Assembly (NCBI RefSeq): GCF_006519705.1
Contig: NZ_VFXM01000015.1
Coordinates: forward strand, 48,179-80,178
From: Ornithinimicrobium kibberense
Lineage (GTDB): Bacteria; Actinomycetota; Actinomycetes; Actinomycetales; Dermatophilaceae
Length of the DNA stretch: 32,000 nucleotides
Direction: 5' to 3'
Part shown: piece by piece, positions 7,437 through 23,557 of the stretch
Position numbering within the stretch: position 1 is the stretch's first letter
Layout: the number at the start of each line of letters is the position of its first letter
Made by a program: the position numbers and the translations under genes
Notes under the pieces: model-generated
What the model saw: the letters and a program-made list of their open reading frames with translations, nothing else
Database searches by the model: none
Told to the model about the DNA's origin: nothing

Positions 7437-7637
7437 ATGCTGTCGCTCACCATGGTCGAGTACGAGTTCCGTGAGCTGACGTTCTACCGGGACAGCTCCC
7501 GCTCGGCGGTGCGGCAGACGCTGGCCGAGCACGCCGAGTACGGGCACTGGGAGCTGGTGCGGGTGCGGGTGTTCTGGGGCGGGGTGCGCAAGGTCGTCCT
7601 TCGCCGCAGGATCATCCGGGTCCGCCGCACCGCCTGA
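7437..7637 (+). CDS. DUF5703-like small protein
   Basis: MLSLTMVEYEFRELTFYRDSSRSAVRQTLAEHAEYGHWELVRVRVFWGGVRKVVLRRRIIRVRRTA. The 'AEYGHWEL...RK..LRRRI' signature is what I remember for DUF5703. This is the 3' tail of an otherwise spurious 1257-aa track ORF. Alternative ATG at 7452. Confidence 0.7.
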   Translation: MLSLTMVEYEFRELTFYRDSSRSAVRQTLAEHAEYGHWELVRVRVFWGGVRKVVLRRRIIRVRRTA

Positions 7638-7660
7638 GCGCCGGCCGGCTGCCGCGGCTC

Positions 7661-9004: not shown

Positions 9005-9013
9005 ACCGCCACC

Positions 9014-9472
9014 CTAACCAGCGTCGTCACCCAGCTTGGACTCCACGCAGGCCACGAACTGGCCCAGCAGCTTGTCCGACACCGACTGCATCACCCCGCG
9101 GCCGAACTGTGCGGGCTTGCCGGTGATGTGCAGCTCGGTGCCCACGTCGACCCGGGTGCCCCCGCCGTCCGGGGCCAGCTGCATCGTCACGGTGGCCGAG
9201 GCGTTGCCCAGGCCGCGCATGCCCTTCCCGGTGCCCTCGACGACCGCTCGACGGGCCTCGTCGTCGCGCTCGAGGAACCGGCCGGTGCCCTGGTAGGTGA
9301 CGGCGATCGGCCCCAGCTTGACCTTGACGTTGCCCGCGAAGGTCTCCTCGTCGGCCTCCGTCACCGTGGCTCCGGGGAAGCAACCACCTACGGTCTGCAG
9401 GTCGGTCATCAGGGCCCAGGTGCGCTCCGGCGGTGCCGGGACGGTGAACGAGTGCTCCAGCTCCATCGCCAC
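9014..9472 (-). CDS. coxG: CoxG / SRPBCC-family carbon monoxide dehydrogenase subunit G-like protein
   Basis: 152 aa. 'FTVPAPPERTWALMTDLQTVGGCFPGA...GNVKVKLGPIAVTYQGTGRF' is CoxG-like. It directly follows coxM (3-nt gap). Confidence 0.85.
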   Translation of the reverse strand: MAMELEHSFTVPAPPERTWALMTDLQTVGGCFPGATVTEADEETFAGNVKVKLGPIAVTYQGTGRFLERDDEARRAVVEGTGKGMRGLGNASATVTMQLAPDGGGTRVDVGTELHITGKPAQFGRGVMQSVSDKLLGQFVACVESKLGDDAG

Positions 9473-9475
9473 GGG

Positions 9476-10330
9476 TCAGGCCCCCGCCGCTGTCAGGACC
9501 GCCCGCCGGGTCAGCACCCCGGCGAGGTGCCGCCGGTAGTCGGCCTGCCCGTTGAGGTCCGAGGGCGGGTCGGTGCCCTCCCCCGCCCGGGCGCAGACCT
9601 GGGCCACCGCCTCCTCGGTCGCCGGCAGCCCCACGAGGGCCTGCTCGACCTCGCTCGCCCGCATCGGGGTGGCGCCCATGTTGGTCAGGCCGACCCGCGC
9701 CTCGGCGATGGTCCCGCCCTCGGCCCGGACGGTCGCGGCGACCCCGATGATGGCCCACTGGTGGGAGACCCGGACGAACTTCTCGTAGTGGCTGCCCCAG
9801 CCGGTGTGCTTGGGCAGGACGACCGCGGTGAGCAGCTCGCCCTCCCCCACGGCTGTCTCGAACAGGTCCACGAAGAACTCCGACGCGGGCACCTCCCGCT
9901 CCCCGTCCGGGCCCCGGACGACCATCCGTCCCTCGAGGGCCAGCACGGGGGCGCCGACGTCGCCGGCCGGGTCGGCGTGCACCAGGGCGCCGCAGACCGT
10001 GCCGCGGTGGCGGATCTGGGGGTCGGCGATCTCCTTGACGGCCGAGCGGAGGAGGCCGAGGTGCTCGGTGACGAGGTCGGAGTCGAGCACGTCCTGGTAG
10101 GTCGCGCCGGCACCGATCCTGATGCTGTCACCCTCGTCGGTGATCCCTCGGAGGCCCTCGATCCGGGAGATGTCCACGACCATCCCGGGGGCGTTCAGCC
10201 GCATCCGCAGGACGGGCAGCAGGGACTGCCCTCCGGCCAGCACCTTGGCCTCGTCGCCGTGCTCGGCGAGCAGGGCCAGGGCCTCCTCGACGGTGGCGGG
10301 GGCGGCGTAGTCGAACGGTGCGGGGATCAT
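9476..10330 (-). CDS. coxM: Molybdenum hydroxylase FAD-binding medium subunit (CoxM-like)
   Basis: [45 protein letters not shown]... is the FAD_binding_5 / CO dehydrogenase flavoprotein pattern. ATG 10330 overlaps the coxL stop (ATGA). Confidence 0.9.
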   Translation of the reverse strand: MIPAPFDYAAPATVEEALALLAEHGDEAKVLAGGQSLLPVLRMRLNAPGMVVDISRIEGLRGITDEGDSIRIGAGATYQDVLDSDLVTEHLGLLRSAVKEIADPQIRHRGTVCGALVHADPAGDVGAPVLALEGRMVVRGPDGEREVPASEFFVDLFETAVGEGELLTAVVLPKHTGWGSHYEKFVRVSHQWAIIGVAATVRAEGGTIAEARVGLTNMGATPMRASEVEQALVGLPATEEAVAQVCARAGEGTDPPSDLNGQADYRRHLAGVLTRRAVLTAAGA

Positions 10331-12852
10331 GCCCGACCACCTTCCTGGGGGTATGCGGTGCCGCCGGCAGGTCCGTCCGGCCCGGGGTCGTCCTGGTTGG
10401 GTGCGTCCTGCGTGAAGTGCGGCTGGGCGCTGTCCTCGGTGGGCGTGCTCCCGCCCTGCCGGTTGTCCTCGATCGCCCGCCAGACCCGTTCGGGGGTGCA
10501 GGGCATCTGGATGTCGTGGATGCCCATCGGCCGGACGGCGTCGACGACGGCGTTGACGACGGCCGGGGTGGAGGCGATGGCTCCCGCCTCGCCCACCCCC
10601 TTGGCGCCGAGGTCGTTGGTCGTGGCCGGGGAGACGGTCCGGTCGGTGACGAAGCTGATCGTGTCCGCCGAGGTGGGCAGGGTGTAGTCGACGAACGAGC
10701 CGGACACCAGCGTGCCCTGGTCGTCGTAGACGGCCTCCTCCCACAGCGCCTGGGCGATGCCCTGGACGAGGCCGCCGTGGATCTGCCCGTCGACGATGAG
10801 CGGGTTGACCACGTTGCCGACGTCGTCGACCGAGACGTAGGAACGCATCCGGCTCTGCCCGGTCTCGGTGTCGACCTCCATGGCGCACAGGTGGGTGCCG
10901 TGCGGGAAGGAGAAGTTCTCCGGGTCGAAGGTGGCGTCGGCGTCGAGGGTGGGCTCCATGCCGTCGGGCAGGTCGTGGGCGGTGAACACCTTGAGGGCGA
11001 GGTCGGTCAGGCCGATGCCCTCCTGGTCGTCGCCGGCCCCGCGGACCCGGAACCTGCCGGAGGAGAACTCCAGGTCGTCGACGTTGGCCTCCAGCAGGTG
11101 CGCCGCGAGGGGCTTGGCCTTCTCGACCACCCGCTGGGCCGCCTGGACGACGGCCTGGCCGCCGACGACCAGCGAGCGCGACCCGTAGGTGTCCAGCCCG
11201 CGGGGGCTGACCTGGGTGTCCCCGTGCAGGACCTCGACGTCCTCGAACGGCACGCCGAGCTGGTCGGCCACGATCTGGCTCCAGGCGGTCTCGTGCCCCT
11301 GGCCGTGGGCCGAGGCTCCGGTGACGACCTCGACCTTGCCGCTGGGCAGCATCCGCACCGAGGCGCTCTCCCAGCCCCCGGCGCCGTAGTCGAGGGAGCC
11401 CAGGACCCGGGAGGGTGCCAGGCCGCACATCTCGGTGAAGGTGGACACGCCGATGCCCAGCTGGACCCGGTCGCCGCTCTCCCGGCGACGGGCCTGCTCG
11501 GCCCGCAGCTCGTCATACCCGAAGAGCTCCTTGGCCCGGGTGGTGGCGGCCTCGTAGTTGCCGGAGTCGTACTCCAGCCCGCAGACGGAGGTGAACGGGA
11601 ACTCCTCGTGGGTGATCCAGTTCTGCTCGCGCACCTCGAGCGGGTCGCGTCCCAGCTCGGCGGCCAGCTCGTCCATGAGCCGCTCGATCGCGAAGGTCGC
11701 CTCGGGGCGGCCGGCACCGCGGTAGGCGTCGGTCCACGTCTTGTTGGTGAAGACGTTGGTGCAGGTGAAGTGGTAGGCGGGGAACTTGTAGATGGCGTTG
11801 TACATGAAGGCCCCGAGGATGGGCACGCCGGGCGTGACCAGGCCCAGGTAGGCGCCCATGTCGGCGAGCAGCTCGACCTTGAGGCCGGTGACCGTGCCGT
11901 CCTTGCGGGCCGCGAGGGTGAGCTTCTGCCACTGGTCACGGCCGTGGTGGCCGGACAGCAGCGACTCGCTGCGGGTCTCGGTCCACTTGCACGGGCGGCC
12001 GGTGCGGCGGGCCGCGAGGAAGGTGATGATCTCCTCGGGGGTGACCTGCAGCTTGCCGCCGAACCCGCCGCCGACGTCGGGCGCGATGACCCGGACCTTG
12101 GACTCCGGCACGCCGAGGGTGAGGGCGAGCATGAGGCGCAGGATGTGCGGCACCTGGGTGGCGGACCACATGACGAACTGCTCGCCGGTGGGGTCGACGA
12201 CGACCGAGCGGGGTTCCATGAACGCCGGGATGAGGCGCTGCTGGCGGTACTCCCGCTCGATGAGCACCTCGGCGTCGCGGATGGCGGCCTCCACGTCCTC
12301 GCCGGTCCCGGCCTCGGCCGAGTCGAAGGTCCAGGTGGCCGACCGGTTGGTGCCCAGGTCGGGGTGGGCCAGGACGTCGTCGCCGGCGGACTGCCGCAGG
12401 TCGAGGGCGGCGGGCAGCTCCTCGTAGTCCACGTCGACCAGCTCGGCGGCGTCCCGGGCTGCGGCCGCGGTGCGGGCCACGACGACCGCCACGATCTCGC
12501 CCGCGAAGGCGACGCGGTCGACGGCGATCGCCGGGTGCGGGGGGGCCTTCTGGTCGGGGGTGATCGGCCAGGCGGTGGGCAGGGATCCCTGGATCTCCTT
12601 GACGTCCTCGCCGGTGATCACGGCGACGACGTTGGGCGAGGACTCGGCGGCGCCGGCGTCGATGCCGGTGATCCGGGCGTGGGCGTAGGGGCTGCGCACC
12701 ATGGACAGGTGCAGCATCCCCTGCAGCTGCATGTTGTCGGTCCACCTGGTGCGGCCGGTGATGAGGCGCTGGTCCTCCTTGCGGCGGCGGTCCCGGCCTA
12801 CCTCCCCCTGGGGGGTGTCCTGCTCGGCGGTGCGGTCGTCGGTGACGGTCAT
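10327..12852 (-). CDS. coxL: Molybdopterin-dependent hydroxylase large subunit, form-II CoxL-like
   Basis: 841 aa of aldehyde oxidase/xanthine dehydrogenase a/b-hammerhead and Mo-binding sequence. The active-site loop reads AYRGAGR (11707-11727), the form-II signature rather than AYxCSFR. Confidence 0.92.
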
Positions 12853-13343
12853 GCCTGCTCACTCCCCTGGGTCGCGGTGGCGGATCCGGAGCCGGCGGCC
12901 TGCAGCACGGCCTTGACGATGTTGTGGTAGCCGGTGCAGCGGCACAGGTTGCCCTCCATGTGCTGGCGGACGTGCTCCTCGTCGGGGTTCGGGTTCTCGG
13001 CGAGGAGATCGGTCGCCTGCATGATCATCCCGGGGGTGCAGAAGCCGCACTGCAGGGCGTGGCAGTCGCGGAACGCCTCCTGTACGGGGCTGAGCTGCTC
13101 GCCGTCGGCCAGGCCCTCGATCGTGGTCACGGTCCGCCCGTCGGCCTGGACGGCGAGCACGTTGCAGGACTTCACGCTGCGGCCGTCGAGGTGCACGGTG
13201 CAGGCGCCGCAGCTGCTCGTGTCGCAGCCGACGACCGTGCCGGTCTTGCCGAGCTGTTCTCGCAGGTAGTGGACCAGGAGCGTTCGGGGCTCGACGTCGT
13301 CGGTGTACTTCATGCCGTCGACCGTCACGGAGATCTGGGTCAT
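12849..13343 (-). CDS. coxS: [2Fe-2S]-binding small subunit (CoxS-like)
   Basis: '[12 protein letters not shown]' and '[10 protein letters not shown]...CRCTGY' are the two 2Fe-2S motifs. Start placed at ATG 13343, preceded by CTGGAGGACGC (SD). The stop overlaps the coxL start (ATGA). Confidence 0.92.
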
Positions 13344-13440
13344 GCGTCCTCCAGGTGGGAACCGGACTTCGTTGTCCCGCCCGATCCTGCCCTGTCGCAC
13401 GTTCCGCCGCAATACCTCCGACGGTCCGGTGCCGGCGATG

Positions 13441-13614
13441 TCAGAAGAGGACGAAGCAACTGATCCCGAAGAGGATGAGGAAGGCGAAGAGCACGAAGCT
13501 CATGAAGTTGTTCTCCGCCGCGCTCGGCGCCCGGTCCTCCGGGACCCAGTCGTCGACCGCGGTGGCCGCAGGTCGCCGGGCGTGGGCGCTCCCCTGGTCG
13601 TGCGTGGTTCTCAC
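13441..13614 (-). CDS. Small tail-anchored membrane protein (57 aa), Phe-rich C-terminal TM helix
   Basis: [61 protein letters not shown] 13614 overlaps the upstream stop (GTGA, 13611-13614). GC3 is about 90% in this frame, whereas the antisense frame is rich in A/T-ending codons. Alternative internal start at ATG 13503 (20 aa) with GGAG about 9 nt upstream. Confidence 0.5.
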
Positions 13615-14066
13615 AGCACCGCTCCTATCCGGTCCAGCTCGGTCATGGTGGCGACGGCCAGGATCACGAGGACGACCGTGATGAAGGCCGTGTAGGTCCA
13701 GCGGTAGGCGTGGTCGGCCCGCCAGAAGCGTCGCAGGCTGAGCACGCCGGTGACGGCCGCGACGGCGCACAGGGCCAGTCCGATGGGTGCGGCCACCCAG
13801 CCGGCCAGGCTCAGGACCGGCAGCAGGACCGGCACGGCGACGTAGGTGACGACGCAGCGCACGGCGGAGACGACGACCGACACCCGGAAGGCGCGGTGCG
13901 CACCCTGGCCGGACCGGCGGTCGACCCCCTCGATGCCCAGGACCCGTCGCATCCACCGGTCCGCGGCACCGTCCGACCTGTGACCGGCGCCCTCGGGGGG
14001 CCGTCGTCCGGCGTCGGCGTCCGCCGGGGCGAGGGGGCTGGCCTGCGCCTGCGCCTGCGTGGTCAT
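13611..14066 (-). CDS. Hypothetical integral membrane protein (151 aa, about 3 TM)
   Basis: Low-complexity N-terminus, then hydrophobic segments VSVVVSAVRCVVTYVAVPVLLPVLSLAGWVAAPIGLALCAVAAVTGVL and WTYTAFITVVLVILAVA. GC3 is high. ATGA overlap with the upstream gene (14063-14066). Confidence 0.65.
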   Translation of the reverse strand: MTTQAQAQASPLAPADADAGRRPPEGAGHRSDGAADRWMRRVLGIEGVDRRSGQGAHRAFRVSVVVSAVRCVVTYVAVPVLLPVLSLAGWVAAPIGLALCAVAAVTGVLSLRRFWRADHAYRWTYTAFITVVLVILAVATMTELDRIGAVL

Positions 14067-14401
14067 CCTTCCTCCTCCTCGACCGGGCTCGTGCGCGGGT
14101 TGCGCATCAGCTGCCGGGCCCCGAGGCCCACGGACACCAGGCCCACGCCGCCGACGAGGATGCCGATGAAGAAGCCCCAGTAGAGGGGGTCCATCCTGGA
14201 GGCGGGGTCCTCGTTGCCCATCGTGCTGCCGATCAGGATGCCGAAGAAGGGGGCCAGCACGGCCAGGATGGCCCCACCGACCGCACGCCAGAATCCGGGT
14301 GGCGTGGGTTCGAGCCGCACCGGGCGTCCGGGAGGCGGAGGGGTGTCGTCCTCGACGACCTCCGCGTCGTCGCGCCGGGTGGTGGGGTGGGTGTCGGTCA
14401 T
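14063..14401 (-). CDS. Hypothetical membrane protein (112 aa, 2 TM)
   Basis: MTDTHPTTRRDDAEVVEDD...FWRAVGGAILAVLAPFFGILIGS...LYWGFFIGILVGGVGLVSVGLG...VEEEEG. ATG 14401 overlaps the SPFH stop (ATGA, 14398-14401). It is the C-terminal part of a composite track ORF. Confidence 0.65.
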   Translation of the reverse strand: MTDTHPTTRRDDAEVVEDDTPPPPGRPVRLEPTPPGFWRAVGGAILAVLAPFFGILIGSTMGNEDPASRMDPLYWGFFIGILVGGVGLVSVGLGARQLMRNPRTSPVEEEEG

Positions 14402-15276
14402 CGGGATCGCCCTTCTGCGCGGTCGTCGGCCACGGCCATGCCGTTCGTCGCCGAGGGGACGCGTGCTGCCGACGCCTCGCGTCCGTGGTCGGGGGTGCGG
14501 GTCTGCGCGGTGGGCGCGACCCTGTCCAGCGCGCCCAGCAGGGGCCCGACGATGTCCATCGGCAGCGGGAAGACCACCGTGGAGTTCTGGTCGGCGCCGA
14601 GCTCGAGCAGCGTCTGCAGGTAGCGCAGCTGCAGCGCCGCGGGCGCCTCGCTGAGGGTCCGCGCCGCGTCGCGCAGCTCCTCGGAGGCCTCGAGCTCGCC
14701 GTGCGCGCTGATGACCTTGGCCCGGCGCTCGCGCTCGGCCTCGGCCTGGCGGGCCATCGCCCGCTGCATCATCTCGGGGATCTCCACGTCCTTGATCTCG
14801 ACCACGTCGACGTCGACGCCCCACGGCACGGCCTGGTGGGCGATCGAGCGGTAGAGGTCCTCGTTGAGGTCGGCGCGGTGGGCCAGGAGGGTGTCCAGGT
14901 CCGCTCGCCCGACCACCGAGCGCAGGGTGGTCTGGGCGAACTGGGAGGTGGCGACCGCGTGGTTCTCCACCGCCATCACCGACCGCACCGGGTCGGACAC
15001 CTTGAACATCACCACGGCGTTGACCCGGGCGGTCACGTTGTCGCGGGTGATGACCTCCTGCGGCGGGATGGTCAGGGTCACCACCCGCTGGTCCACCCGC
15101 ACCGACCGGTCGAGGAACGGCAGCATGAGCACCAGGCCGGGCCCGAGCGCGCCGCGCAGCCGGCCGAGACGGAAGACGACCAGCCGCTCGTACTCGCGCA
15201 CCACCTTCAGCGAGGCGACGAGCAGCGCCAGCAGGACGCCGGCCACCACGAGGGCAGCCACCACCGAGCTAGGCAT
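14398..15276 (-). CDS. SPFH/Band-7 (prokaryotic stomatin / slipin) family protein
   Basis: N-terminal TM helix, then 'LKVVREYERLVVFRLGRL...PPQEVITRDNV...VEIKDVEIPEMMQRAMARQAEAERERRAKVISAHGELEAS...LQLRYLQTL', the classical p-stomatin sequence. Start placed at ATG 15276, preceded by GGAAGGAGG. The upstream extension to 15357 has poor GC3. Confidence 0.9.
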   Translation of the reverse strand: MPSSVVAALVVAGVLLALLVASLKVVREYERLVVFRLGRLRGALGPGLVLMLPFLDRSVRVDQRVVTLTIPPQEVITRDNVTARVNAVVMFKVSDPVRSVMAVENHAVATSQFAQTTLRSVVGRADLDTLLAHRADLNEDLYRSIAHQAVPWGVDVDVVEIKDVEIPEMMQRAMARQAEAERERRAKVISAHGELEASEELRDAARTLSEAPAALQLRYLQTLLELGADQNSTVVFPLPMDIVGPLLGALDRVAPTAQTRTPDHGREASAARVPSATNGMAVADDRAEGRSR

Positions 15277-15973
15277 TCTCCTGCGCCTCCTTCCGGTCCG
15301 AGGCGTACCGGGTGCGTCCGAGCACGACCGGCACGGGGTCCGTGTGCGGGTCGGCACGACGGTCGGAGGCGTAGGTCGTCCGCCGGCGACGGACCGCCTC
15401 GACCGCCTGCGCCCGCTCCTCGAGGTTCTCGTCCAAGGACCGGAAGAGCACCCCCTCGGGGTCCACCGGGCTGTTGCGCAGGTGCGACCACAGCGGTATG
15501 CCCCCGAGCGCGACGAGCAGGCCGGTGCCCAGGAGGAGGACCTGGCTCGTCCAGTGCTCGACGGTGAAGCTGGTGACCACGGGGAAGACGGCGGCCAGAA
15601 CGGCGACGGCGCAGGCGATGCCCCGGTGGAACCGGGCCGACTCCGAGGATGGCCAGGCGTCGACCGCCCGCCCCAGCTCCCGGCCGTCGTCCGTGGTCGT
15701 GCAGCTGTCCTTCACGGGGCAGGAGTTGCAGACGCTGGGACTGCCGCGGTAGCGCATGACCCGGTTCTCCGGGTCGAAGGACTGCGGCCACAGCCACTGG
15801 TCCTCGGGGCACAGCCACGCGTCGTGGTCCTCGTGGTAGGTGAACCCGCGCGTCTGGTGCTCGTCGTTGGCGGTGTGCACCCGCCGGGCGAGCAGGTCGA
15901 TCCCGTAGGCGACGAGCAGCAGCACGACGGCATACCCGGCGCCCAGCCACCCGGGCAGCTCGACCGCGGTCAC
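15269..15973 (-). CDS. Hypothetical 3-TM membrane protein with a cytoplasmic 4-Cys module (C-x26-C-x2-C-x5-C)
   Basis: 234 aa. TM1 is WLGAGYAVVLLLVAYGIDLLA. It is followed by FTYHEDHDAWLCPEDQW...RVMRYRGSPSVCNSCPVKDSCTTT, then two further TM helices and an Arg-rich tail with two YASDR[RK] motifs. The GTG start overlaps the qNOR stop (GTGA, 15970-15973). GC3 is high. Confidence 0.7.
   Translation of the reverse strand: MTAVELPGWLGAGYAVVLLLVAYGIDLLARRVHTANDEHQTRGFTYHEDHDAWLCPEDQWLWPQSFDPENRVMRYRGSPSVCNSCPVKDSCTTTDDGRELGRAVDAWPSSESARFHRGIACAVAVLAAVFPVVTSFTVEHWTSQVLLLGTGLLVALGGIPLWSHLRNSPVDPEGVLFRSLDENLEERAQAVEAVRRRRTTYASDRRADPHTDPVPVVLGRTRYASDRKEAQENA
15293..15311 (-). repeat. 19-nt repeat copy B (CCGGTCCGAGGCGTACCGG on the plus strand), encoding ...RYASDR...
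   Basis: 18/19 identical to 16003-16021. It lies in the 3' tail of the 4-Cys membrane protein gene. Confidence 0.8.
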
Positions 15974-18417
15974 GACGGCCTCCCCGGCCCCTCGTCACGG
16001 CGCCGGTCCGAGGCATACCGGCTCGGGGGCACCGACGTCGCGTCGTCGCCGGCGGCCGAGGGGGCGACCGGGCTGGCGACCACCGCCCCGCTCCGCCCCG
16101 TGCGGTCCTCGTGCGCCTCGGCGCTCTCCACGACGAAGAGGGTCTCCGGCTCCATCCGGGTGACCGTGGCCCGCACGCCGTGCCGGACGCCGAGCCAGGT
16201 GATCCAGATGAACGGCAGGATGCCACCGAGGAGGAAGATCACGTCGCCGGGCATCCGCATCCACTCCAGGGCCACGTTGCCGGGCTGGGTGATGTAGGCC
16301 AGGGTGCGGGCCTCGTAGTAGCCCTGGTTGACCGAGGCCCACAGCTGCATGGTGCCCAGCGGCAGGAGGGTGGCGAACATCATCCAGGCCAGACCGATGT
16401 TCAGCGACCAGAACGACAACCGGGCCAGCCGGTCGGGCCAGCGCTGCGGAGGGATGATGTAGCGCAGCGCGAACAGCGCCAGCCCGACGGCCATCATCCC
16501 GTAGACGCCCATCATGGCGCCGTGCGCATGGTTGGCGGTCAGGGCCGTGCCGATCTGGTAGTAGGACACGATCGGCAGGTTCACGAGGAAGCCGAAGACG
16601 CCGGCGCCCAGGAAGTTCCAGAAGCCCACGGCGACCAGGAACATGACCGCCCACCGGTGGGGGAAGGGCGCGCTGGAGCGCGACTCCTGCCGGGCGCCGA
16701 GCTGCAGGAACGTCCAGGCCTCGATGGTCAGGAAGGTGAGCGGGATGACCTCCAGGGCCGAGAAGACCGCACCGAGGGCCATGTGCTCGACCGGGGTGCC
16801 GGAGAAGTACAGGTGGTGCATGGTGCCGATGACGCCGCCGGCCGAGTAGAGGATCACGTCCAGGAAGATGATCTGGATCGCGATCTTGCGGCGCACCACG
16901 CCGAGCATGACGAACAGGTAGGCGACCATCACGGTGGTGAACAGCTCCAGGAAGTCCTCCACCCACAGGTGCACCACCCAGAAGCGCCAGAACTCGGCGA
17001 CGGTCAGGTGCACCGTGTTCATCGCCAGCAGGCCCACGGCGTAGAAGGCGGGGATCGCCAGCGCCGCGTAGGCGAACAGCCAGGGCATGTTGAACTTGGA
17101 CTCGGTCCGCAGCCGGGACCGGATCGCCCGCACGATGATGAGGAACCACAGGAACAGCCCGATCACCAGGAGGATCTGGAAGAACCTGGGCAGGTCCAGG
17201 TACTCCCACTGCTGGGAGAAGAAGATCGACCCCTCCGCCCAGCGGGGGCCGTAGATGCTGATGGCGGTGCCGCCGAACATCCCCACCACCACGAGCGCCA
17301 GGGCGCCCAGCAGCCCGTAGGACAGGTAGTGCTGGCCCTTGGGCTCGCGGCCCGAGATGATCGGGGCGAGGAAGATCGCCGCGGCCAGGAAGGCCGCGGC
17401 CGTCCACAGCAGGGACAGCTGCACGTGCCAGGTCCGGGCGAGGTTGAACGGGAAGATCTGGGCCAGGTCGAAGCCGAAGAAGCCTTCGAGCTCGACGCGG
17501 TAGTGCTCGACGGAGGCGCCGACGGTGGCCTGGATGAGGAACAGGATGGACACCACCAGGAAGAACCACGCCGTGGACTTCTGCGCCTTGGTGATCCCCA
17601 CCTCCCCGGGCTGCAGGAAGCGCAGGCTGGTGGTGTCGTTGCCCTTCCAGCCCAGCTTGGCGCTCCACCGGCCGTAGACGGCGAACAGGATGCCCAGGCC
17701 GGCCAGCAGCGCGACCAGGGAGATGCCCGACCAGACGAGGATGTCGGCGGTGGGTTGGTTGTTCACGCGGGGCTCGGGCGGCCAGTTGTTGGTGTAGGAG
17801 TAGTCCAGCCCTGGTCGTTCGGCGGCGCTCGCCCAGGCCGTCCACGCGTAGAACGCGGTGAGGTCGTGGATGTGCTCGGGGTCGGTGATCTTGTCCGGGA
17901 CCAGCCCGTGCCGGGTCGTCGGGTCGCCGAAGAAGTCGGCGTAGTGCTCGGTGATCGCGTCGAAGGCGGAGACCTGCTCGGGGGTGAGGACGAGGACGCC
18001 GCTGTCCTCGTCGTACCGGTTGGTCCGTTGCATCTCGGCCGTGGCGGCCTGCGGGTCCTGCACACCCGCCTGCTCGAGCCGCTCGAGGATGTGCTCGCTG
18101 CTGAGCCGAAGGTACTCGGCGGTGTAGTCCGGGCCGAGATAGGCACCGTGGCCGACGATCGAGCCGTACTGCTGCAGACCGCGGGTCAGGAAGATGTTCT
18201 GGCCGTTGGTGATCTCCTCGCCGGTGAAGACGACCTCGCCCTCCTGGCTGACCACCTCCTGGGGCAGCGGCATGGAGGCGGTGTAGGTCCGGTAGGCCAG
18301 CACCCCCATCACGAAGAAGCCGAAGATGAAGACCAGGGCGACCCCCTGCACCCATCCCTTCGAGATGGCCAGCTCGTTGCGTCCTCGCTGCCCGGCCTGC
18401 TGATCGATGGTCACCAT
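15970..18417 (-). CDS. norZ: Quinol-dependent nitric oxide reductase (qNOR, single-subunit NorB/NorZ type)
   Basis: 815 aa. The long N-terminal extension lacks a CxxCH heme-c motif ('GQNIFLTRGLQQYGSIVGHGAYLGPDYTAEYL'). The heme-copper-oxidase-like core has His ligand motifs 'WVVHLWVE', 'GTMHHLYFSG' and 'ANHAHGAMMGVYG'. Start placed at ATG 18417, because the upstream in-frame stretch has poor GC3. Confidence 0.9.
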   Translation of the reverse strand: MVTIDQQAGQRGRNELAISKGWVQGVALVFIFGFFVMGVLAYRTYTASMPLPQEVVSQEGEVVFTGEEITNGQNIFLTRGLQQYGSIVGHGAYLGPDYTAEYLRLSSEHILERLEQAGVQDPQAATAEMQRTNRYDEDSGVLVLTPEQVSAFDAITEHYADFFGDPTTRHGLVPDKITDPEHIHDLTAFYAWTAWASAAERPGLDYSYTNNWPPEPRVNNQPTADILVWSGISLVALLAGLGILFAVYGRWSAKLGWKGNDTTSLRFLQPGEVGITKAQKSTAWFFLVVSILFLIQATVGASVEHYRVELEGFFGFDLAQIFPFNLARTWHVQLSLLWTAAAFLAAAIFLAPIISGREPKGQHYLSYGLLGALALVVVGMFGGTAISIYGPRWAEGSIFFSQQWEYLDLPRFFQILLVIGLFLWFLIIVRAIRSRLRTESKFNMPWLFAYAALAIPAFYAVGLLAMNTVHLTVAEFWRFWVVHLWVEDFLELFTTVMVAYLFVMLGVVRRKIAIQIIFLDVILYSAGGVIGTMHHLYFSGTPVEHMALGAVFSALEVIPLTFLTIEAWTFLQLGARQESRSSAPFPHRWAVMFLVAVGFWNFLGAGVFGFLVNLPIVSYYQIGTALTANHAHGAMMGVYGMMAVGLALFALRYIIPPQRWPDRLARLSFWSLNIGLAWMMFATLLPLGTMQLWASVNQGYYEARTLAYITQPGNVALEWMRMPGDVIFLLGGILPFIWITWLGVRHGVRATVTRMEPETLFVVESAEAHEDRTGRSGAVVASPVAPSAAGDDATSVPPSRYASDRRRDEGPGRPS
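16003..16021 (-). repeat. 19-nt repeat copy A (CCGGTCCGAGGCATACCGG on the plus strand), encoding ...RYASDR...
   Basis: 18/19 identical to 15293-15311. It lies in the 3' tail of the qNOR gene. Confidence 0.8.
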
Positions 18418-18432
18418 GGTAGGAACCGCCCC

Positions 18433-18463
18433 GTCCTCACGTGGTCGAGGACAACCCGTCCTC
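18433..18463 (-). promoter_or_regulatory. Three-arm alternative hairpin in the qNOR leader (GAGGAC / GUCCUC / GAGGAC)
   Basis: mRNA sense: GAGGAC-GGGUU-GUCCUC-GACCACGU-GAGGAC, ending 15 nt before AUG 18417. The central arm can pair with either flank. Any function is inferred. Confidence 0.4.
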
Positions 18464-18473
18464 GTCGACATCA

Positions 18474-18538
18474 AAAGGTGCAATGACCCGGGACCATAGC
18501 CTCCGAGGGAGGTCCGTGGGGCGATTCCGGGCACCTTT
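18474..18538. promoter_or_regulatory. 8-bp inverted repeat AAAGGTGC / GCACCTTT (49-nt spacer) enclosing the CCTCC-GAG-GGAGG hairpin
   Basis: Arms at 18474-18481 and 18531-18538; inner hairpin at 18500-18512. It sits in the only sizeable low-GC intergenic gap of the locus (xdhC stop to qNOR start). Statistical significance is marginal. Confidence 0.3.
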
Positions 18539-18563
18539 CGGTCAAATAGCCGGAAACCCTTAC

Positions 18564-19718
18564 CTAGTCTTTACCTTCGGGACCTTCGTGGCCGGTGTGG
18601 ATCGGGCCCGTCGTCGTCGAGAGCGGCTCGCCGCCCCCGCCCCACCGGGTCGCGATGATCTCCGCCGCGATCGAGACGGCCGTCTCCTCGGGGGTGCGTG
18701 CGCCCAGGTCGAGGCCGACCGGGCTGCGCAGGCGCGCCAGCTGGTCCTCGGTGAGACCGGACTCGCGCAGGCGGGCCAGCCGGTCCTCGTGGGTGCGGCG
18801 GGACCCCATCGCGCCGACGTAGGCCAGCTCGGGGGCGTCGGGCCCGAGCAGGGCCTCCAGCAGGGGCACGTCGAACTTCGGGTCGTGGGTCAGCACGCAG
18901 GCCACCGTCCGGGGGTCGAGCGCGGCCTGGGCGACCTGCTCCTCCACGTACCGGTGGGGCCAGGAGACCACGACCTCGTCGGCCTCGGGGAACCGGCTGG
19001 CCGTGGCGAAGACCGGACGGGCGTCGCAGACCGTCACCCGGTAGCCCAGGAAGGTCCCCACCCGGGCGACGGCGGCCGCGAAGTCGATCGCGCCGAAGAC
19101 GAGCATCCGCGGCCGGGGCGCGTAGGAGCTGACGAAGACCCGCATACCCTCACCCCGCCGCTGCCCGTCCGGCCCGTAGCCGAGGGTGGCGGTGCGCCCC
19201 TGGGCGAGCATGCCGCGGGCGTCGTCGAGGACGGCGGCGTCGGCCCGTGCGGAGCCGAGGGTGCCGGAGGACTCCGCCCCCTCCGGGCGGACGACCAGGT
19301 GCCGGCCCAGCAGGCCGGGGTCCGGGTGCTCCACGACCGTGGCCACGGCCACGGGGACCTCCGCCGCGATGTCCGCGGCGACCTCGGCCAGCTCCGGGAA
19401 GTCCTCGCGGCCGACCCGCTCGACGAAGACGTCGAGGATGCCGCCGCACGTCAGGCCGACGCCCATCGCCTCGTCGTCGGACACGCCGTACCGCTGCAGG
19501 ACGGGGGTGCCGGAGGCGATGACCTGCTGGCCCAGCTCGTAGACCGCTCCCTCGACGCATCCCCCGGAGACGGACCCGACGGCCTCACCGTCGACTCCGA
19601 CGAGCATCGCGGCACCCGGTTGGCGCGGGGCCGACTTCCACGTGCCGACGACGGTGGCGAGGGCCACCTGGTGACCCTCCTGCCACCATCCCAGCAGCCG
19701 GTCCAGGACCTCACGCAC
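18564..19718 (-). CDS. xdhC: XdhC/CoxI-family molybdenum-cofactor insertion accessory protein
   Basis: VREVLDRLLGWWQEGHQVALATVVGTWKSAPRQPGAAMLV...GGCVEGAV (XdhC_CoxI N-domain) plus a Rossmann-like C-domain 'RMLVFGAIDFAAAVARVGTFLGYRVTVCDARP'. The GTG start overlaps the coxE end by 8 nt. Confidence 0.88.
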   Translation of the reverse strand: MREVLDRLLGWWQEGHQVALATVVGTWKSAPRQPGAAMLVGVDGEAVGSVSGGCVEGAVYELGQQVIASGTPVLQRYGVSDDEAMGVGLTCGGILDVFVERVGREDFPELAEVAADIAAEVPVAVATVVEHPDPGLLGRHLVVRPEGAESSGTLGSARADAAVLDDARGMLAQGRTATLGYGPDGQRRGEGMRVFVSSYAPRPRMLVFGAIDFAAAVARVGTFLGYRVTVCDARPVFATASRFPEADEVVVSWPHRYVEEQVAQAALDPRTVACVLTHDPKFDVPLLEALLGPDAPELAYVGAMGSRRTHEDRLARLRESGLTEDQLARLRSPVGLDLGARTPEETAVSIAAEIIATRWGGGGEPLSTTTGPIHTGHEGPEGKD

Positions 19719-20823
19719 GGGCGACCACCTCCAGCAGCTCCTCGAACGTCGCCAGCGTGTGGCCGGAGACGAAGTCGTCGACGTGCGGCAGCACCGCACG
19801 GATCCCCGACTGGACCGGGGCGTAGCCCTCCTTGCCGCGGTGGGGGTTGACCCAGACGACCCGGTGGGCCAGCGCCTGCAGCTGGCGCACCGCCTCGCCG
19901 AGCCGGGCCGGGTCCTGCCGCTCCCAGCCGTCGCTGACGATGACCACCACGGCGCCGCGGGCCGTCCCACGCCGGCCCCACCGGCGGACGAAGGCGTCGA
20001 GGGTCTCGCCCAGGCGGGTACCGCCGGACCAGTCGGGCACGGTCTCCCCGGCCGCCAGCAGCGCGCGGTCCGGGTCCCGCTCGCGCAGCGCCCGGGTGAC
20101 GTGGGTCAGCCGGGTGCCGAGGGTGAAGACCTCGGTGGTGCGGGGGGCCGCCTGCACCATGACGTGGGCCAGCCGCAGCAGGCTGTCCGCGTAGGGGGCC
20201 ATCGACCCGGAGACGTCCACCAGCACCACGACCGGCCGGGGGCGTGGTCGGCGCCGCCGGTGCCGGACCCGCACCGGCTCGCCCAGGTTGCGCAGCTGGG
20301 CGCGGACCGTCGCCCGGCCGTCGACCCCTCCGTGGTGGTGGGGGGTATGCCGTCGTCCCCGCCGCTGGGGCGACCGTGGCCGGAGCCGGGCGAACCGTCG
20401 GCGCAGGGCGGCCCGGTCGGTCGGCGAGAGCCCGGCGACGTCGCGGTGCCGTAGGACCTCCTCGGGGGAGGCAGCCACCCGCAGGACGGGCTGCTCCTGC
20501 CCGTCCACGCCTCCAAGCCCGGACTCGTCCAGCGGAGCCTGCACCGTCGTGACGGACGGCGTCTCCTGCCGGCTGATCGACCGCAGGGGGCGGCCGGCGA
20601 ACCAGGCGTTGAAGACGCGGTCGTAGGGCTCCACGTCCGCGTTGGAGGCCGTGAGCGTCCCGCGGCCGGCCCAGTAGACGGCATCCCGCCGGCCGAGGCC
20701 GACGGCGGCGCAGGCCTGGAGAAAGGTGCGCTCACGGTCGGCGGTCACGGGCAGGCCCGCTCCACGGCACGCCCGGGCGAAACCGAGCAGCACCTGGCCC
20801 ATGTCCCACCCGGTGTCGGTCAT
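19711..20823 (-). CDS. coxE: VWA domain-containing protein (CoxE-like)
   Basis: 'VVVLVDVSGSMAPY' is the MIDAS motif (DxSxS), with 'VVVIVSDGWERQD' also present, and the gene sits after the MoxR ATPase. ATG 20823 overlaps the coxD stop (ATGA). Confidence 0.85.
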   Translation of the reverse strand: MTDTGWDMGQVLLGFARACRGAGLPVTADRERTFLQACAAVGLGRRDAVYWAGRGTLTASNADVEPYDRVFNAWFAGRPLRSISRQETPSVTTVQAPLDESGLGGVDGQEQPVLRVAASPEEVLRHRDVAGLSPTDRAALRRRFARLRPRSPQRRGRRHTPHHHGGVDGRATVRAQLRNLGEPVRVRHRRRRPRPRPVVVLVDVSGSMAPYADSLLRLAHVMVQAAPRTTEVFTLGTRLTHVTRALRERDPDRALLAAGETVPDWSGGTRLGETLDAFVRRWGRRGTARGAVVVIVSDGWERQDPARLGEAVRQLQALAHRVVWVNPHRGKEGYAPVQSGIRAVLPHVDDFVSGHTLATFEELLEVVARA

Positions 20824-21725
20824 CCGGCCAGCATCCGGTCCAGCGAGGCGCGGATCCGGTCGGCGTCCTCGCGGTACTTGACCGCCGCGCCCAGCGTCGC
20901 GGCAGCCACCTGCGGGTCGAGCGTGCTGGCGCCCAGGGCGTGCAGCGCGCGCGCCCAGTCGAGGGTCTCGGCCACCCCCGGCGGCTTGACGAGGTCGGCC
21001 TCGGCCCGGAGTCGCTGGACGACCCCGACCACCTCGGCCGCGAGCCGCTCGTCCACCTCGGGCAGCCGGGTGCGCACGATGGCCAGCTCGCGGTCCATGC
21101 CAGGATGCTCGATCCAGTGGTAGAGGCAGCGACGCTTCAGCGCGTCGTGCAGCTCGCGCGTGCGGTTGGAGGTGAGCACGACCAGCGGTGGCTCCGTCGC
21201 CCGGATGGTCCCCAGCTCGGGGATGGACACCGACCACGACGAGAGCACCTCCAGGAGGAAGGCCTCGAACTCGTCGTCCGCCCGGTCGATCTCGTCGACG
21301 AGGAGCACGCACGGCGCTTCCTGCAGCGCACGCAGGACCGGCCGCGACTGGAGGAACCGCTCGTCGAAGAGCTCGTGCTCCAGCTCCGCCACGTCGCCGA
21401 CCTTCCGGTCGGGGTCGGCCATCGCCGCCGCCTCGACCACCCTCAGGTGCAGGATCTGACGTGGGAAGTCCCAGTCGTAGAGCGCCTGGCTGGCCTCGAT
21501 CCCCTCGTAGCACTGCAGCCGCACGAGGGGGATCCCCCGCAGCTGGGCCAACGCCTCGGCGAGGGCGGTCTTGCCGGTCCCGGGCTCCCCCTCCAGGAGC
21601 AGCGGCCGTTGGAGGGTGTGCGCCAGCCAGGTGATCGTCGCCAGGCCCTCGTCGCTGAGGTACCCGGTCGTGGCCAACCCCTCGGCGAGCACCTGCGGAT
21701 CGGCCATGACGTCGGACTGCTGCAT
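20820..21725 (-). CDS. coxD: MoxR-type AAA+ ATPase (CoxD-like)
   Basis: Walker A 'GEPGTGKT', Walker B 'LLVDEIDRA', 'LVVLTSNRTRELHDALKRRC'. 301 aa. Confidence 0.9.
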   Translation of the reverse strand: MQQSDVMADPQVLAEGLATTGYLSDEGLATITWLAHTLQRPLLLEGEPGTGKTALAEALAQLRGIPLVRLQCYEGIEASQALYDWDFPRQILHLRVVEAAAMADPDRKVGDVAELEHELFDERFLQSRPVLRALQEAPCVLLVDEIDRADDEFEAFLLEVLSSWSVSIPELGTIRATEPPLVVLTSNRTRELHDALKRRCLYHWIEHPGMDRELAIVRTRLPEVDERLAAEVVGVVQRLRAEADLVKPPGVAETLDWARALHALGASTLDPQVAAATLGAAVKYREDADRIRASLDRMLAG

Positions 21726-21872
21726 GAGGCGAGCATGACCGACGCGACGCGGCAGCGTCCACCCGGGTGGGGTCCTCGTGGCCCGACCGCGCGCCGGGTC
21801 TTCGGGGCCTCAGGTGCGCGAGGTCCTGGTGGGTGCCTGCCGGTGCCCGGTCAGGCGCTGCGTGGGAGGGGG

Positions 21873-23447
21873 TCATCCTGGTCGTGGTCGCTGTTGTCGG
21901 TGGGGTGGGTGGGGGGGTGGTGGTGCGGTGGTGGGTGGTCGGCCGTGGAAGGTGTCCAGGAGCGGTGGTGGGTCCTGGTAGGACTGTGGTGGTGGGTCGG
22001 CGTGGCGGGGGTGCTCGCGGGCCAGGTTGCAGCGGGCGCACAGGCCGCGGGCGTTGTCGGTGGTGGTGGTGCCGCCGTGGCGGTAGCGGGTGATGTGGTC
22101 CAGGTGGCGGATCGGGGCTCCGCACCAGGGGGTGGCGCAGTAGCGGCCGCGGGCGATGAGGGTGGCGCGCAGGTTGCCGGTGAAGGCCCGCCGGCGGGGG
22201 TCGCGCACGGTCAGGGTGCCGGTGACCGGGTCGGTGTAGAGCCGGCGCAGCCAGACCTGGGCCGCCCGGGCCAGGCCCGGGTCCGGGTCCGGGACGGACC
22301 GTTCCCCGGGGCCGGCGGTGCCGGTGGGCGGGGTCGAGCTGGCCGTACCGGCCGGCGGGGTCGGGAGGGGTGGTCCGGGGGGTGTGCCGCCGTGGACGGC
22401 GGTGCAGGCTGCGTCGGTGCACCGGCCTCCGGCCGGGCACGGCACGGGAGCCGTCCCGGTGCTCCTCTGCTCCTCGCCGGGGCCGTCCTGGGGGCCGGCG
22501 CCGGCCTCGTCGTCGACGTGGGGGTCGTCCTGGGGGTCGGTGGGGGTGAGCAGGTCGCGGGCCAGGTCGGCGGGCAGGGGCCCGTACCCGGTCAGGTCGG
22601 CCGCGGCCGGGTCGCCGGCGAGCAGGGTCGCGTCGGTGAGGACCAGGCCGACCTCGACGTCGATGCCGTCCACGACGCTGCGGCCGGTGACCCGGGCGAC
22701 CAGCTCGTCGGCCATCAGCTGGTTCAGGGTGCGCGGGTCACCGGCGGCGCGGGCGCCCTCGGCGTGGGCGCGCAGCACCTGGTGGGTCGCGATCGCCTGC
22801 GGCGCGGGCAGCCGGGCGCTGAGCAGGCCCATCACGTCCGGGGCCGGGCGCACGGACACGCCCCGCTCGGCCGCCGCCGCACGGGCACGGCCCACGAACC
22901 CGGCCGGGTCGACCTCGTAGGCCAACGCCCGGGCCGCGGCCACGATCTGCTTGGTAGAAGCCCCCTCCAGCGACCCGGCCAGCCGCGAGTCGACCTGCGC
23001 CCGGTCGCCGGGGTCCAGGCAGGTGGTGGCCTCGGTGACCAGGCGGGCCTGGGCCGGGCTGATCGTCCCGGCCGCCAGCGCGGCGAACGTGGCCGGCATC
23101 TCGGTGACCAGGGCCCTCGCTGCGGTCAGCTCCCGCCCGGCCCAGTACGGCGAGGTGCGCCGCGCGGTGGCCAGGTCGTCGGCCACCGCCCGGCCCCGCC
23201 GGGAGGCCGGGACCCCCTCCCGGGCCTGGGCGGCGACCTGGGAGGCGCCGAAGGTGACCTGCGCCCGGGCGCTGGCCGCGCCGGCTGCCCGGACCAGCAG
23301 CTCCAGCCCCTCCACCAGATCCAGCAGCCCCGCATCGTCGATCCCCGACACCCGCGCCCCCGCCAACGCCCGGGTCAGGGACCGCACCGCCTCGGCCAGC
23401 CCCGGCTCCCCCGGCCCGGTGCCGGTCCCCTCCGGTCCTGCGTCCAC
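21873..23447 (-). CDS. DUF222 / HNH endonuclease (REP13E12-like family)
   Basis: The C-terminal HNH motif is 'CATPWCGAPIRHLDHITRYRHGGTTTTDNARGLCARCNLAREH'. The N-terminal DUF222-like region is 'LAEAVRSLTRALAGARVSGIDDAGLLDLVEGLELLVRAAGAASARAQVTF'. The start is uncertain. GTG 23447 lies 11 nt after GGAGG. The in-frame stretch up to GTG 23546 has poor GC3 (TCT, AGT, GGT, GGA, GTT, CCA codons). Confidence 0.8.
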   Translation of the reverse strand: MDAGPEGTGTGPGEPGLAEAVRSLTRALAGARVSGIDDAGLLDLVEGLELLVRAAGAASARAQVTFGASQVAAQAREGVPASRRGRAVADDLATARRTSPYWAGRELTAARALVTEMPATFAALAAGTISPAQARLVTEATTCLDPGDRAQVDSRLAGSLEGASTKQIVAAARALAYEVDPAGFVGRARAAAAERGVSVRPAPDVMGLLSARLPAPQAIATHQVLRAHAEGARAAGDPRTLNQLMADELVARVTGRSVVDGIDVEVGLVLTDATLLAGDPAAADLTGYGPLPADLARDLLTPTDPQDDPHVDDEAGAGPQDGPGEEQRSTGTAPVPCPAGGRCTDAACTAVHGGTPPGPPLPTPPAGTASSTPPTGTAGPGERSVPDPDPGLARAAQVWLRRLYTDPVTGTLTVRDPRRRAFTGNLRATLIARGRYCATPWCGAPIRHLDHITRYRHGGTTTTDNARGLCARCNLAREHPRHADPPPQSYQDPPPLLDTFHGRPPTTAPPPPHPPHRQQRPRPG

Positions 23448-23557
23448 GTCCCCCACCCCCTCCGGTGGTCCAACGGCAGAACCCCTTCCCCGGCTCCACC
23501 TCGTACCCAACACACTAGAAGACCCCACCGACACACCCTCGAACACGCGTACGAGAT

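Follow-up and report, generated by a model that had tools for sequence, protein, structure and literature searches.

A 32,000-nucleotide stretch of the actinomycete Ornithinimicrobium kibberense (contig NZ_VFXM01000015.1, positions 48,179 to 80,178; hereafter the window) carries on its minus strand, at 13441-18417, a module of six genes. The first encodes a nitric-oxide reductase that depends on quinol (qNOR), followed by a four-cysteine protein with three transmembrane (TM) helices, here named Cys4, a stomatin of the SPFH family, and three small membrane proteins, p112, p151 and p57. We propose, at a probability of roughly 0.55, that the module is one operon encoding a multi-subunit qNOR that was built in three evolutionary layers and is recruited through shared tails to a stomatin cage. 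The reality of the genes, their order, coupling and conservation, the family relationships of their products, the distribution of two tail motifs and the common predicted membrane side are observed. Expression, interaction and function are putative.

Gene content and conservation of the module

An earlier reading of this DNA (the sequence-only reading) described six consecutive minus-strand genes that overlap at every junction, and coordinates, junction letters, codon composition and public gene calls all confirm this. GC content in the window is high (68-79%). In the six open reading frames (ORFs), which lie exactly where that reading placed them, GC at third codon positions (GC3) is 0.90-0.97 (0.96 in Cys4, 0.91 in p57) against 0.44-0.56 at second positions, and the ORFs are therefore coding in these frames. 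The O. kibberense annotation contains all six proteins with identical boundaries under consecutive accessions (MFB9732712-17), and p57 is the annotated protein WP_181409623. Public names are 'nitric-oxide reductase large subunit' for qNOR (PGAP), 'hypothetical protein' for Cys4 ('Transposase' in UniRef), 'slipin family protein' for the stomatin, and three hypotheticals. The overlaps are GTGA between qNOR and Cys4 (15970-15973), the 8-nucleotide ATGCCTAG between Cys4 and the stomatin (15269-15276), ATGA between the stomatin and p112 (14398-14401), ATGA between p112 and p151 (14063-14066), and GTGA between p151 and p57 (13611-13614). The domain calls of the sequence-only reading, qNOR and SPFH, are borne out by Pfam NorB_cytochrome_c-like with COX1 and by Band_7; the four proteins it left unidentified reach no family above threshold in Pfam or NCBIfam profile searches.

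Table 1. Genes and sequence elements of the module and of its neighbourhood, in window positions.
Feature	Position	Strand	Description
qNOR	15970-18417	minus	815 amino acids; quinol-dependent nitric-oxide reductase; first gene of the module
HLWVE	16957-16971	minus	qNOR catalytic motif, identical in Alcaligenes qNOR
HHLY	16807-16818	minus	qNOR catalytic motif, identical in Alcaligenes qNOR
HAHGA	16516-16530	minus	qNOR catalytic motif, identical in Alcaligenes qNOR
qNOR C-terminal extension	15973-16167	minus	residues 751-815, cytoplasmic; past the aligned part of solved qNORs
LFxE box (MEPETLFVVE)	16126-16155	minus	qNOR tail; candidate Cys4 contact
RYASDRR	16000-16020	minus	qNOR tail motif, kept in most orthologues
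Cys4	15269-15973	minus	234 amino acids; 3-TM membrane protein with predicted cytoplasmic 4-Cys ribbon
4-Cys ribbon of Cys4	15659-15847	minus	residues 43-105; related to IS1182/DDE_Tnp_1_6 transposase segment
WPxSExxRFHRG	15620-15655	minus	juxtamembrane motif before TM2, invariant in the Cys4 alignment
YASDRR, copy 1 of Cys4	15356-15373	minus	tail motif
YASDRK, copy 2 of Cys4	15290-15307	minus	second copy, common to Ornithinimicrobium, Brachybacterium and Brevibacterium orthologues
Stomatin (slipin, SPFH1-type)	14398-15276	minus	292 amino acids; N-terminal anchor, bulk predicted cytoplasmic
p112	14063-14401	minus	2-TM; fourth core gene
p151	13611-14066	minus	3-TM; lineage-specific addition
p57	13441-13614	minus	tail-anchored small protein
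coxD (MoxR AAA)	20820-21725	minus	5' side of module
coxE (VWA_CoxE)	~19711-20910	minus	5' side of module
XdhC/CoxI	18564-19970	minus	5' side of module
coxS	12849-13412	minus	3' side of module; probable start 13343
coxL	10327-12852	minus	3' side of module
coxM	9476-10330	minus	3' side of module
coxG	9014-9472	minus	3' side of module

One genome per GTDB species was scanned, which gave 180 confirmed loci; 80 of these were retrieved, and all counts of genome loci below refer to them. Every retrieved locus whose contig is long enough (80 loci) has the genes of qNOR, Cys4, stomatin and p112 in this order and on the same strand. The loci represent four orders (Micrococcales, Propionibacteriales, Mycobacteriales and Micromonosporales) and include Brachybacterium, Brevibacterium, Georgenia, Tessaracoccus, Propioniciclava, Mycolicibacterium/Mycobacterium, Rhodococcus, Nocardioides, Arthrobacter, Cryobacterium, Actinoplanes and Pilimelia. 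Cys4 is 50-90% identical across orders. Overlap is conserved at -4 or -1 between qNOR and Cys4 in about 56-63 of 79 loci, between Cys4 and the stomatin in 70-75 of 79, and between the stomatin and p112 in about 52 of 76. Overlaps of four bases are frequent in operons of high GC content, but the arrangement is more than chance, as order and overlap classes recur in 80 other species. The adjacency, which the sequence-only reading had wished to see checked in other genomes, is thus not peculiar to O. kibberense. No other conserved gene family occurs in the 10-kb flanks of the 80 loci, and the cassette is therefore autonomous.

The small ORFs likewise have homologues, p112 in 78 of the 80 loci (the contigs of the other two stop before it), p151 in 28 and p57 in 14. 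Both p151 and p57 are confined to Micrococcales or Propionibacteriales; they are lineage-specific and not core, and the sequence-only picture of all the small proteins as one module is in this respect not supported.

Cys4 as a proposed partner of qNOR

Many Cys4 homologues lack the C-terminal tail, and a metagenome scan seeded with such members returned 80 loci. Tail-less Cys4 lies directly 3' of qNOR in 68 of the 74 loci with room, the qNOR stop overlaps its start by 4 or 1 nucleotides in 49 of 71, and the only SPFH gene among 60 loci with room is an unrelated 35%-identity match. The conserved genes of these loci are qNOR and Cys4 only. Four further tail-less Cys4 genes, on contigs of 47-66% GC, directly follow qNOR with no stomatin after them, and named tail-less members belong to Solirubrobacterales and to Bryobacteraceae (phylum Acidobacteriota). 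There are also Cys-less variants (121-151 amino acids), which retain TM1 and TM2-3 and have WPxSExxRFH in common with Cys4; one of them lies downstream of a Streptomyces plasmid qNOR that bears an LFTE box. Because the pairing is kept without a stomatin and with Cys-less variants, the constant pair is qNOR and the 3-TM protein. The sequence-only reading had started from the premise that qNOR usually needs no dedicated partner and had seen in Cys4 an occupant of the slot upstream of the stomatin that NfeD usually fills. Since tail-less Cys4 is directly 3' of qNOR in 68 of 74 loci, the premise fails for this qNOR clade, and Cys4 is primarily a qNOR partner.

The plasmid locus (Streptomyces sp. 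NBC_00271, NZ_CP108071, 7019-9732) has a qNOR of 59% identity and no stomatin. Its 129-residue Cys-less 3-TM ORF overlaps the qNOR stop and matches Cys4 by BLASTP at E 4e-5 and by hhalign at a probability of 66%. In its surroundings are insertion sequence (IS) elements, an Rrf2 regulator and a truncated haemoglobin. Further Cys-less variants are P0201, P0239 and P0258.

The Cys4 family is large. A 90%-clustered protein collection holds 1007 homologues, the 120 best being 62-96% identical and coming from several actinobacterial families. A profile search of 1.84 billion representatives gave 678 members at the 50% clustering level, many of them 165-200 residues long and tail-less, and a tail-less query alone found 2187 homologous clusters. 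Y14, F44, C55, Y75, C82, C85 and C91 are invariant in 60 diverse members; H47, H50 and D51 are invariant in the actinobacterial clade and not in distant members. The AlphaFold model built from the diverse 60-sequence alignment (pLDDT 88.5) has a long TM1, a beta-rich ribbon, two more TM helices and a helical tail, and Foldseek found no similar fold to it in the PDB.

The ribbon, which presumably binds zinc, is homologous to a 50-70 residue segment in the C-terminal region of IS1182/IS5-type transposases (DDE_Tnp_1_6). The NCBIfam IS1182 transposase model matches Cys4 residues 34-107 with its positions 348-420 of 488 (1.2e-9, 37.6 bits against a cut-off of 270), and Pfam DDE_Tnp_1_6 scores 17.3 bits on the window protein against a cut-off of 25.1 and matches 49 of 60 family members, at best with 4.4e-7. 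Cys4 differs from these transposases in that it has no DDE domain, its ribbon is set between TM helices, it is syntenic with qNOR and not mobile, and its scores stay far below cut-off. It is not a full-length DDE transposase, the rest of the protein being three TM helices and a tail, and a transposase remnant is ruled out by the TM architecture, the invariant residues, the GC3 of the gene and the fixed synteny with qNOR. The names 'Transposase', 'Transposase DDE domain' and 'DDE family transposase' that UniRef and JGI give to the family rest on sub-threshold PF13751. This naming is misleading, as the proteins are membrane proteins without a DDE domain. We propose a new family, the qNOR-linked 3-TM zinc-ribbon partner, defined by TM1, a ribbon of the form CP..G ... 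C..C ... C, the motif W.xSE..RFH, TM2 and TM3, and a gene directly 3' of an LFxE-bearing qNOR. Cys4 of the window has each of these features.

The four invariant cysteines, together with H47, H50 and D51 in the actinobacterial clade, could also be read as a metal-handling site. Cys4 would then be a transient chaperone for metal or haem insertion, for example at the FeB site, in the manner of NorQ/NorD, and the stomatin an assembly or quality-control compartment. cNOR is reported to need dedicated FeB-insertion chaperones, with none known for qNOR (PMC12067857), and SPFH cages have been implicated in the quality control of membrane proteins. The distant members, however, keep only the classic four-Cys ribbon and not H47, H50 or D51, which suggests structural zinc, and the Cys-less variants retain the 3-TM core. 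The conserved stop-start overlap favours a fixed stoichiometry, without proving it. We consider a transient chaperone unlikely.

As the sequence-only reading had stated, NfeD is absent. None was found in the module (Cys4 at E up to 0.1; p112, p151 and p57 at E up to 10), among the 28 window ORFs that were scanned, in 36 p112 orthologues or as a conserved flanking gene of the 80 loci, so that the module does not have the adjacent NfeD with an OB-fold, with or without a ClpP-like protease, that marks the stomatin-NfeD (STOPP) operons. This absence is not itself new, because an earlier study lists 50 genomes in which stomatin genes have no recognisable NfeD next to them and are regarded as single-gene cistrons (PMC2636767). 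In the version of the sequence-only reading, the stomatin is the organiser, Cys4 a functional replacement of NfeD, and qNOR the client. Cys4 is indeed encoded directly upstream of the stomatin and overlaps it; it bears the tail motif described below in every intact stomatin locus, even where the qNOR is without it, which makes it a possible adaptor; and one of 60 Cys4 homologues matches NfeD_membrane at 3e-4. We judge this lone weak match to a transmembrane model to be TM-helix noise. Cys4 has neither an OB-fold nor a ClpP-like domain, its succession of TM helix, ribbon, two TM helices and tail is unlike NfeD, and its link to qNOR in 68 of 74 loci without a stomatin points to a primary association with the reductase. 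A replacement of NfeD is on these grounds decidedly unlikely.

qNOR and its C-terminal extension

The module qNOR matches Pfam NorB_cytochrome_c-like (9.5e-54, residues 52-214) and COX1 (3.8e-52, residues 282-727) far above cut-off, and so has the fusion typical of qNOR, a NorC-like N-terminal domain joined to the 12-TM core of a haem-copper-oxidase subunit I; solved qNORs align over the full catalytic length with E values of 1e-135 to 3e-149. In qNOR structures such motifs supply the metal and haem ligands of the active site (the FeB His with a Glu beside it, a His-His pair and the axial His of haem). Nitric-oxide dismutase-like relatives, which have substitutions at active-site and quinol-site residues, were considered as well; the catalytic motifs, on which this was judged, match bona fide qNOR and argue against them. 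As far as these matches go, the enzyme is a canonical qNOR.

Alignments with PDB entries stop at about residue 750. The 65 or so residues beyond are cytoplasmic by the 14-helix topology of qNOR; in them the LFxE box is followed by an EDRTG block and then by RYASDRR. Nearly all Cys4-linked metagenome qNORs end in an acidic box of the form EEP(E/D)x(I/V/L)LFTE, and 74 of 77 genome loci have LFxE. Six of six control qNORs without a Cys4 neighbour (from Sphingobium, Shewanella, Acaryochloris, Ralstonia, Desulfosarcina and Methylosinus) lack it. The single-subunit qNORs of known structure (Geobacillus, Neisseria, Alcaligenes) belong to the same family and have the same catalytic motifs; the module clade differs from them by the extension of about 65 residues, the LFxE box and the conserved downstream partner gene, with the YASDRR tail added in the stomatin clade, whereas the six qNORs of other clades have neither box nor partner. 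The module enzyme is a true qNOR that would not stand alone.

The EDRTG block (16096-16110), just after the LFxE box, is conserved in the qNOR tail. It has an acidic-Arg element in common with PEDRxPS of p57, which may be a coincidence or a second shared contact. Two genome loci (L039 and L042) have one frameshift each in qNOR.

A tail motif shared by qNOR and Cys4

In stomatin-bearing loci Cys4 ends in RRR(T/S)xYASDRR, in 1-5 copies, and most of the qNORs end in ...SRYASDRR... after a variable linker. In a six-frame translation of the window and the 80 loci (~1.3 Mb), the strict form Y[AGST]SDRR occurs solely in the tails of qNOR and Cys4. It is written in 55 DNA versions at the qNOR site (68 copies) and 46 at the Cys4 site, with all Arg and Ser codon families in use. 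Selection therefore acts on the peptide, and a DNA- or RNA-level cause of the repeated motif is ruled out by the extensive synonymous variation.

The presence of the motif goes with that of the stomatin. We counted both in 140 loci in which the Cys4 gene is complete and 700 or more nucleotides are available downstream. Where the stomatin is present (n=80), there are 70 strict motifs, 9 near-variants (YRSDR, YGSD, YQSD, YAST and similar) and one frameshifted pseudogene locus; where it is absent, the motif is found in 0 of 60 loci. A contig of 53% GC with qNOR, Cys4 and Band_7 genes carries YSSDNR on qNOR and KYRS, KYGSERIR and YYGSDKR on the partner. That qNOR and Cys4 bear a common tail motif only where the stomatin is present lends indirect support to the proposal of the sequence-only reading that the stomatin may be a scaffold of the NO reductase.

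In the pseudogene locus (L053, Tessaracoccus coleopterorum, 7604-12171) the whole module is apparently pseudogenised, with qNOR, Cys4, stomatin, p112 and p151 each in several frame-shifted tblastn pieces. Tandem motifs in three to five copies are seen in the Cys4 tails of L009 (~10600-10756, e.g. YASDRYASERFASDRYPSDQR) and L024 (~1596-1760, three RR.xY[AS]SDRR). Such tandem copies suggest selection for multivalency.

A motif at or near the cytoplasmic C-termini of two membrane proteins might instead be a degron or a phospho-site, with the stomatin modulating the access of a membrane protease such as FtsH to qNOR and Cys4. HflK/C-FtsH, which would be the precedent, is the best-understood bacterial SPFH system, and the motif contains Tyr and Ser and in Cys4 is usually preceded by Thr or Ser. 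No conserved protease or kinase gene is found in the module or its flanks, however, the stomatin is a cytoplasm-facing slipin that scores below the HflK/HflC cut-offs, and the 2-5 copies in some Cys4 tails suit avidity binding better. We therefore regard this explanation as improbable.

Under mere co-transcription the stomatin and the small proteins would be a cassette against membrane stress in general, carried along with a gene for NO detoxification but not physically associated with its product. Every contact in our model is inferred, the cassette sits in varied genomic contexts, which is consistent with a mobile stress island, and IS elements, an Rrf2 regulator and a truncated haemoglobin surround the qNOR of the Streptomyces plasmid. 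Against this stand the order and overlapping junctions conserved across four actinobacterial orders, the same motif on both tails only in stomatin-bearing loci, and the very strong conservation of Cys4, at 50-90% identity between orders. We give co-transcription without association very little credence.

The stomatin, the small proteins and their topology

The SPFH protein matches Pfam Band_7 (4.1e-37, residues 24-194) and has a single hydrophobic segment at residues 5-23. Human stomatin (9oh9) aligns with residues 22-249 at E 9e-66, including the C-terminal strand STVVFPLPMD (14554-14583), and PH1511 and QmcA match as well. With its anchor, its Band_7/SPFH domain and an alignment that takes in the coiled-coil wall or cap helices and the C-terminal ST(I/V)VFPLP(I/M)D strand, the protein is by all these marks a genuine stomatin or slipin. 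It is not an HflK/HflC pair, as there is one SPFH gene and the scores are 72 against 159.4 bits for TIGR01933 and 44 against 134.4 for TIGR01932. As this alignment extends through the C-terminal, cage-closing beta-strand, the protein is expected to form a cage-like oligomer. The cage of the human protein is a 16-mer on the cytoplasmic side that measures ~11.8 nm across internally and covers a flat patch of membrane (PMC12344292). E. coli QmcA is a 26-mer, whose structure was solved in complex with its NfeD partner YbbJ, and qNOR dimers are reported as the active form.

No Pfam or NCBIfam family was found for p112, p151 or p57, nor a Pfam family in 36 p112 orthologues. The UniRef name of p112, 'F0F1-ATPase subunit (Ca2+/Mg2+ transporter)', was rejected, as it has no Pfam support in the window protein or in the 36 orthologues. 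An N-terminal motif, PGRPVRLEPTPPGFW (14288-14332), marks p112; the C-terminal 60 residues of p151 are strongly conserved; and p57 has the motif W(V/T)PEDRxPSxAENNF (13504-13548). By the positive-inside rule, the Cys4 ribbon and tail, the body of the stomatin and the N-terminal ends of all three small proteins lie on the cytoplasmic side. An anti-phage defence function was rejected, PADLOC giving no match for the five non-qNOR proteins.

A layered model of the module

We used these observations to build a model in three layers. First: in several lineages an LFxE-box qNOR is paired with a 3-TM protein bearing a 4-Cys ribbon derived from a segment of an IS1182-type transposase. Cys4 would be a stoichiometric accessory subunit or a dedicated assembly partner; within the membrane its three helices would lie against those of qNOR, and the ribbon would touch the C-terminal box of qNOR at the cytoplasmic face. 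Second: in a large Actinomycetota clade a cytoplasm-facing stomatin and p112 would have been added, and qNOR and Cys4 would both have gained a basic cytoplasmic tail ending in (R)-x-Y-A-S-D-R-R. The shared motif may be a docking signal that tethers qNOR-Cys4 to, or inside, the oligomeric stomatin cage, and the outcome would be a dedicated membrane patch that stabilises, concentrates or gates qNOR or promotes its dimers. Third: in Micrococcales and Propionibacteriales p151 and p57 would have joined as further membrane subunits. The tethered or enclosed complex would include p112 along with qNOR-Cys4 and, in certain lineages, p151 and p57 as well.

Several points weigh against the model. All of its physical contacts and its functional outcome are inferred, and a qNOR dimer with its partners may or may not fit inside a cage of this size. 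Heterologously expressed qNORs of other clades are active alone. The stomatin-bearing loci are probably one clade, and the link between motif and stomatin may reflect a single event. The receptor of the motif could equally be p112, which co-occurs with the stomatin, or an unlinked cytosolic factor. In about nine Propionibacteriales-type loci the stomatin is present and the qNOR has no motif, while Cys4 keeps a Y-R-S-D variant. In two loci of 69-70% GC (L089 and L090), qNOR, Cys4 and p112 are directly adjacent with no stomatin between them and no motif; their contigs stop right after p112, and a stomatin may lie further downstream. Finally, an orphan tail-less Cys4 homologue of 179 residues (L088; GCA_040681285.1, 6001-6540) has no qNOR within 6 kb; its neighbours are a DUF8020 gene and a ROK-family gene, with a cytochrome b gene 3.7 kb downstream.

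Relation to known systems

The stomatin-NfeD operons (Pyrococcus PH1511/PH1510, E. coli QmcA-YbbJ) are like the module in that the gene of a slipin-type SPFH protein forms a tight operon with genes for small membrane proteins. The module stomatin is predicted to face the cytoplasm like QmcA, which reportedly does so. The module differs in having no NfeD; its stomatin is accompanied by a respiratory enzyme, a membrane protein with a zinc ribbon and unrelated proteins of 1-3 TM helices, and its candidate docking element is a short linear tail motif in place of a folded domain. HflK/C-FtsH resembles it in that an SPFH cage surrounds or controls one particular enzyme of the membrane, and is a conceptual precedent for a defined client. 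HflK/C is, however, a periplasm-facing hetero-oligomer with a protease as client, whereas the module has a single cytoplasm-facing stomatin and an NO reductase as presumed client. By analogy the module would act like an SPFH scaffold with a dedicated client, yet it lacks the defining features of both systems.

The norQ, norD, norE and norF genes of cNOR are a precedent for NO reductases that depend on dedicated co-encoded accessory proteins (PMC12067857). The module proteins differ from these in having no AAA+, VWA or COX3-like domains. The sequence-only reading did not recognise the module as a described system, and full-text literature searches likewise brought up no paper in which stomatin, SPFH or slipin is connected to norB or qNOR. 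A NOR diversity survey contains no wording on accessory or additional subunits, on gene neighbours or clusters, on the C-terminal region or on Actinobacteria.

Flanks and genomic surroundings

The module is flanked by gaps of 146 nucleotides upstream and 97 downstream, and a promoter and terminator consensus scan of 12800-19000 found nothing. With these gaps and no predicted terminator, read-through transcription across the module ends is possible. A search for a regulator or operator upstream of qNOR (8-mer enrichment in 71 upstream regions) gave no universal site, only the clade-specific -10-like hexamers TAGTGT, TATGGT and TACGTT. In the window an inverted repeat, GTCGACGAGGAC-GGGTT-GTCCTCGAC, lies ~25-50 nucleotides 5' of the qNOR start (18443-18469, minus strand), and the -10-like TATGGT ~80 nucleotides 5' of it (~18493-18499, minus strand). 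In related loci TAGTGT or TACGTT stands about as far from the start; a common operator was not found among them.

In O. kibberense the module interrupts a cox/xdh-type molybdenum hydroxylase cluster (9014-13412 and 18564-21725, minus strand). The cox genes were ruled out as part of the module, as they flank it in Ornithinimicrobium-type loci only (L002, L008, L009 and L021). The MoxR and VWA proteins of this cluster resemble NorQ and NorD in type, maybe by coincidence. Further upstream, 21800-24100 has a GC content of 0.77-0.79 and many long overlapping ORFs on both strands; the two of these that were tested (22738-23499, minus; 22318-22920, plus) have no Pfam match. Rfam and tRNA scans of the window found nothing.

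Significance

We know of no identified clients for nearly all prokaryotic stomatins. The module would make the question testable, with qNOR as the candidate client, Cys4 as a possible adaptor and a motif of six residues as the putative docking signal. The apparent new elements are one protein family, Cys4, and two linear motifs, LFxE and YASDRR. qNOR has been studied structurally and biochemically as a single polypeptide; given a conserved partner and a co-occurring box, major N2O-producing lineages of soil would have an accessory subunit or assembly factor that has so far gone unnoticed. The Cys4 family comprises thousands of sequence clusters from soil Actinomycetota and Acidobacteriota, for which the finding corrects a recurrent 'transposase' misannotation. 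More tentatively, and with more doubt than confidence, the qNOR of Actinomycetota and Acidobacteriota might be a multi-subunit enzyme with an obligatory small subunit built on a domesticated transposase zinc ribbon, and YASDRR a portable code that lets a bacterial stomatin cage recognise one particular respiratory enzyme as its client and capture it. If true, no client and no docking signal of a prokaryotic stomatin would have been defined before these.

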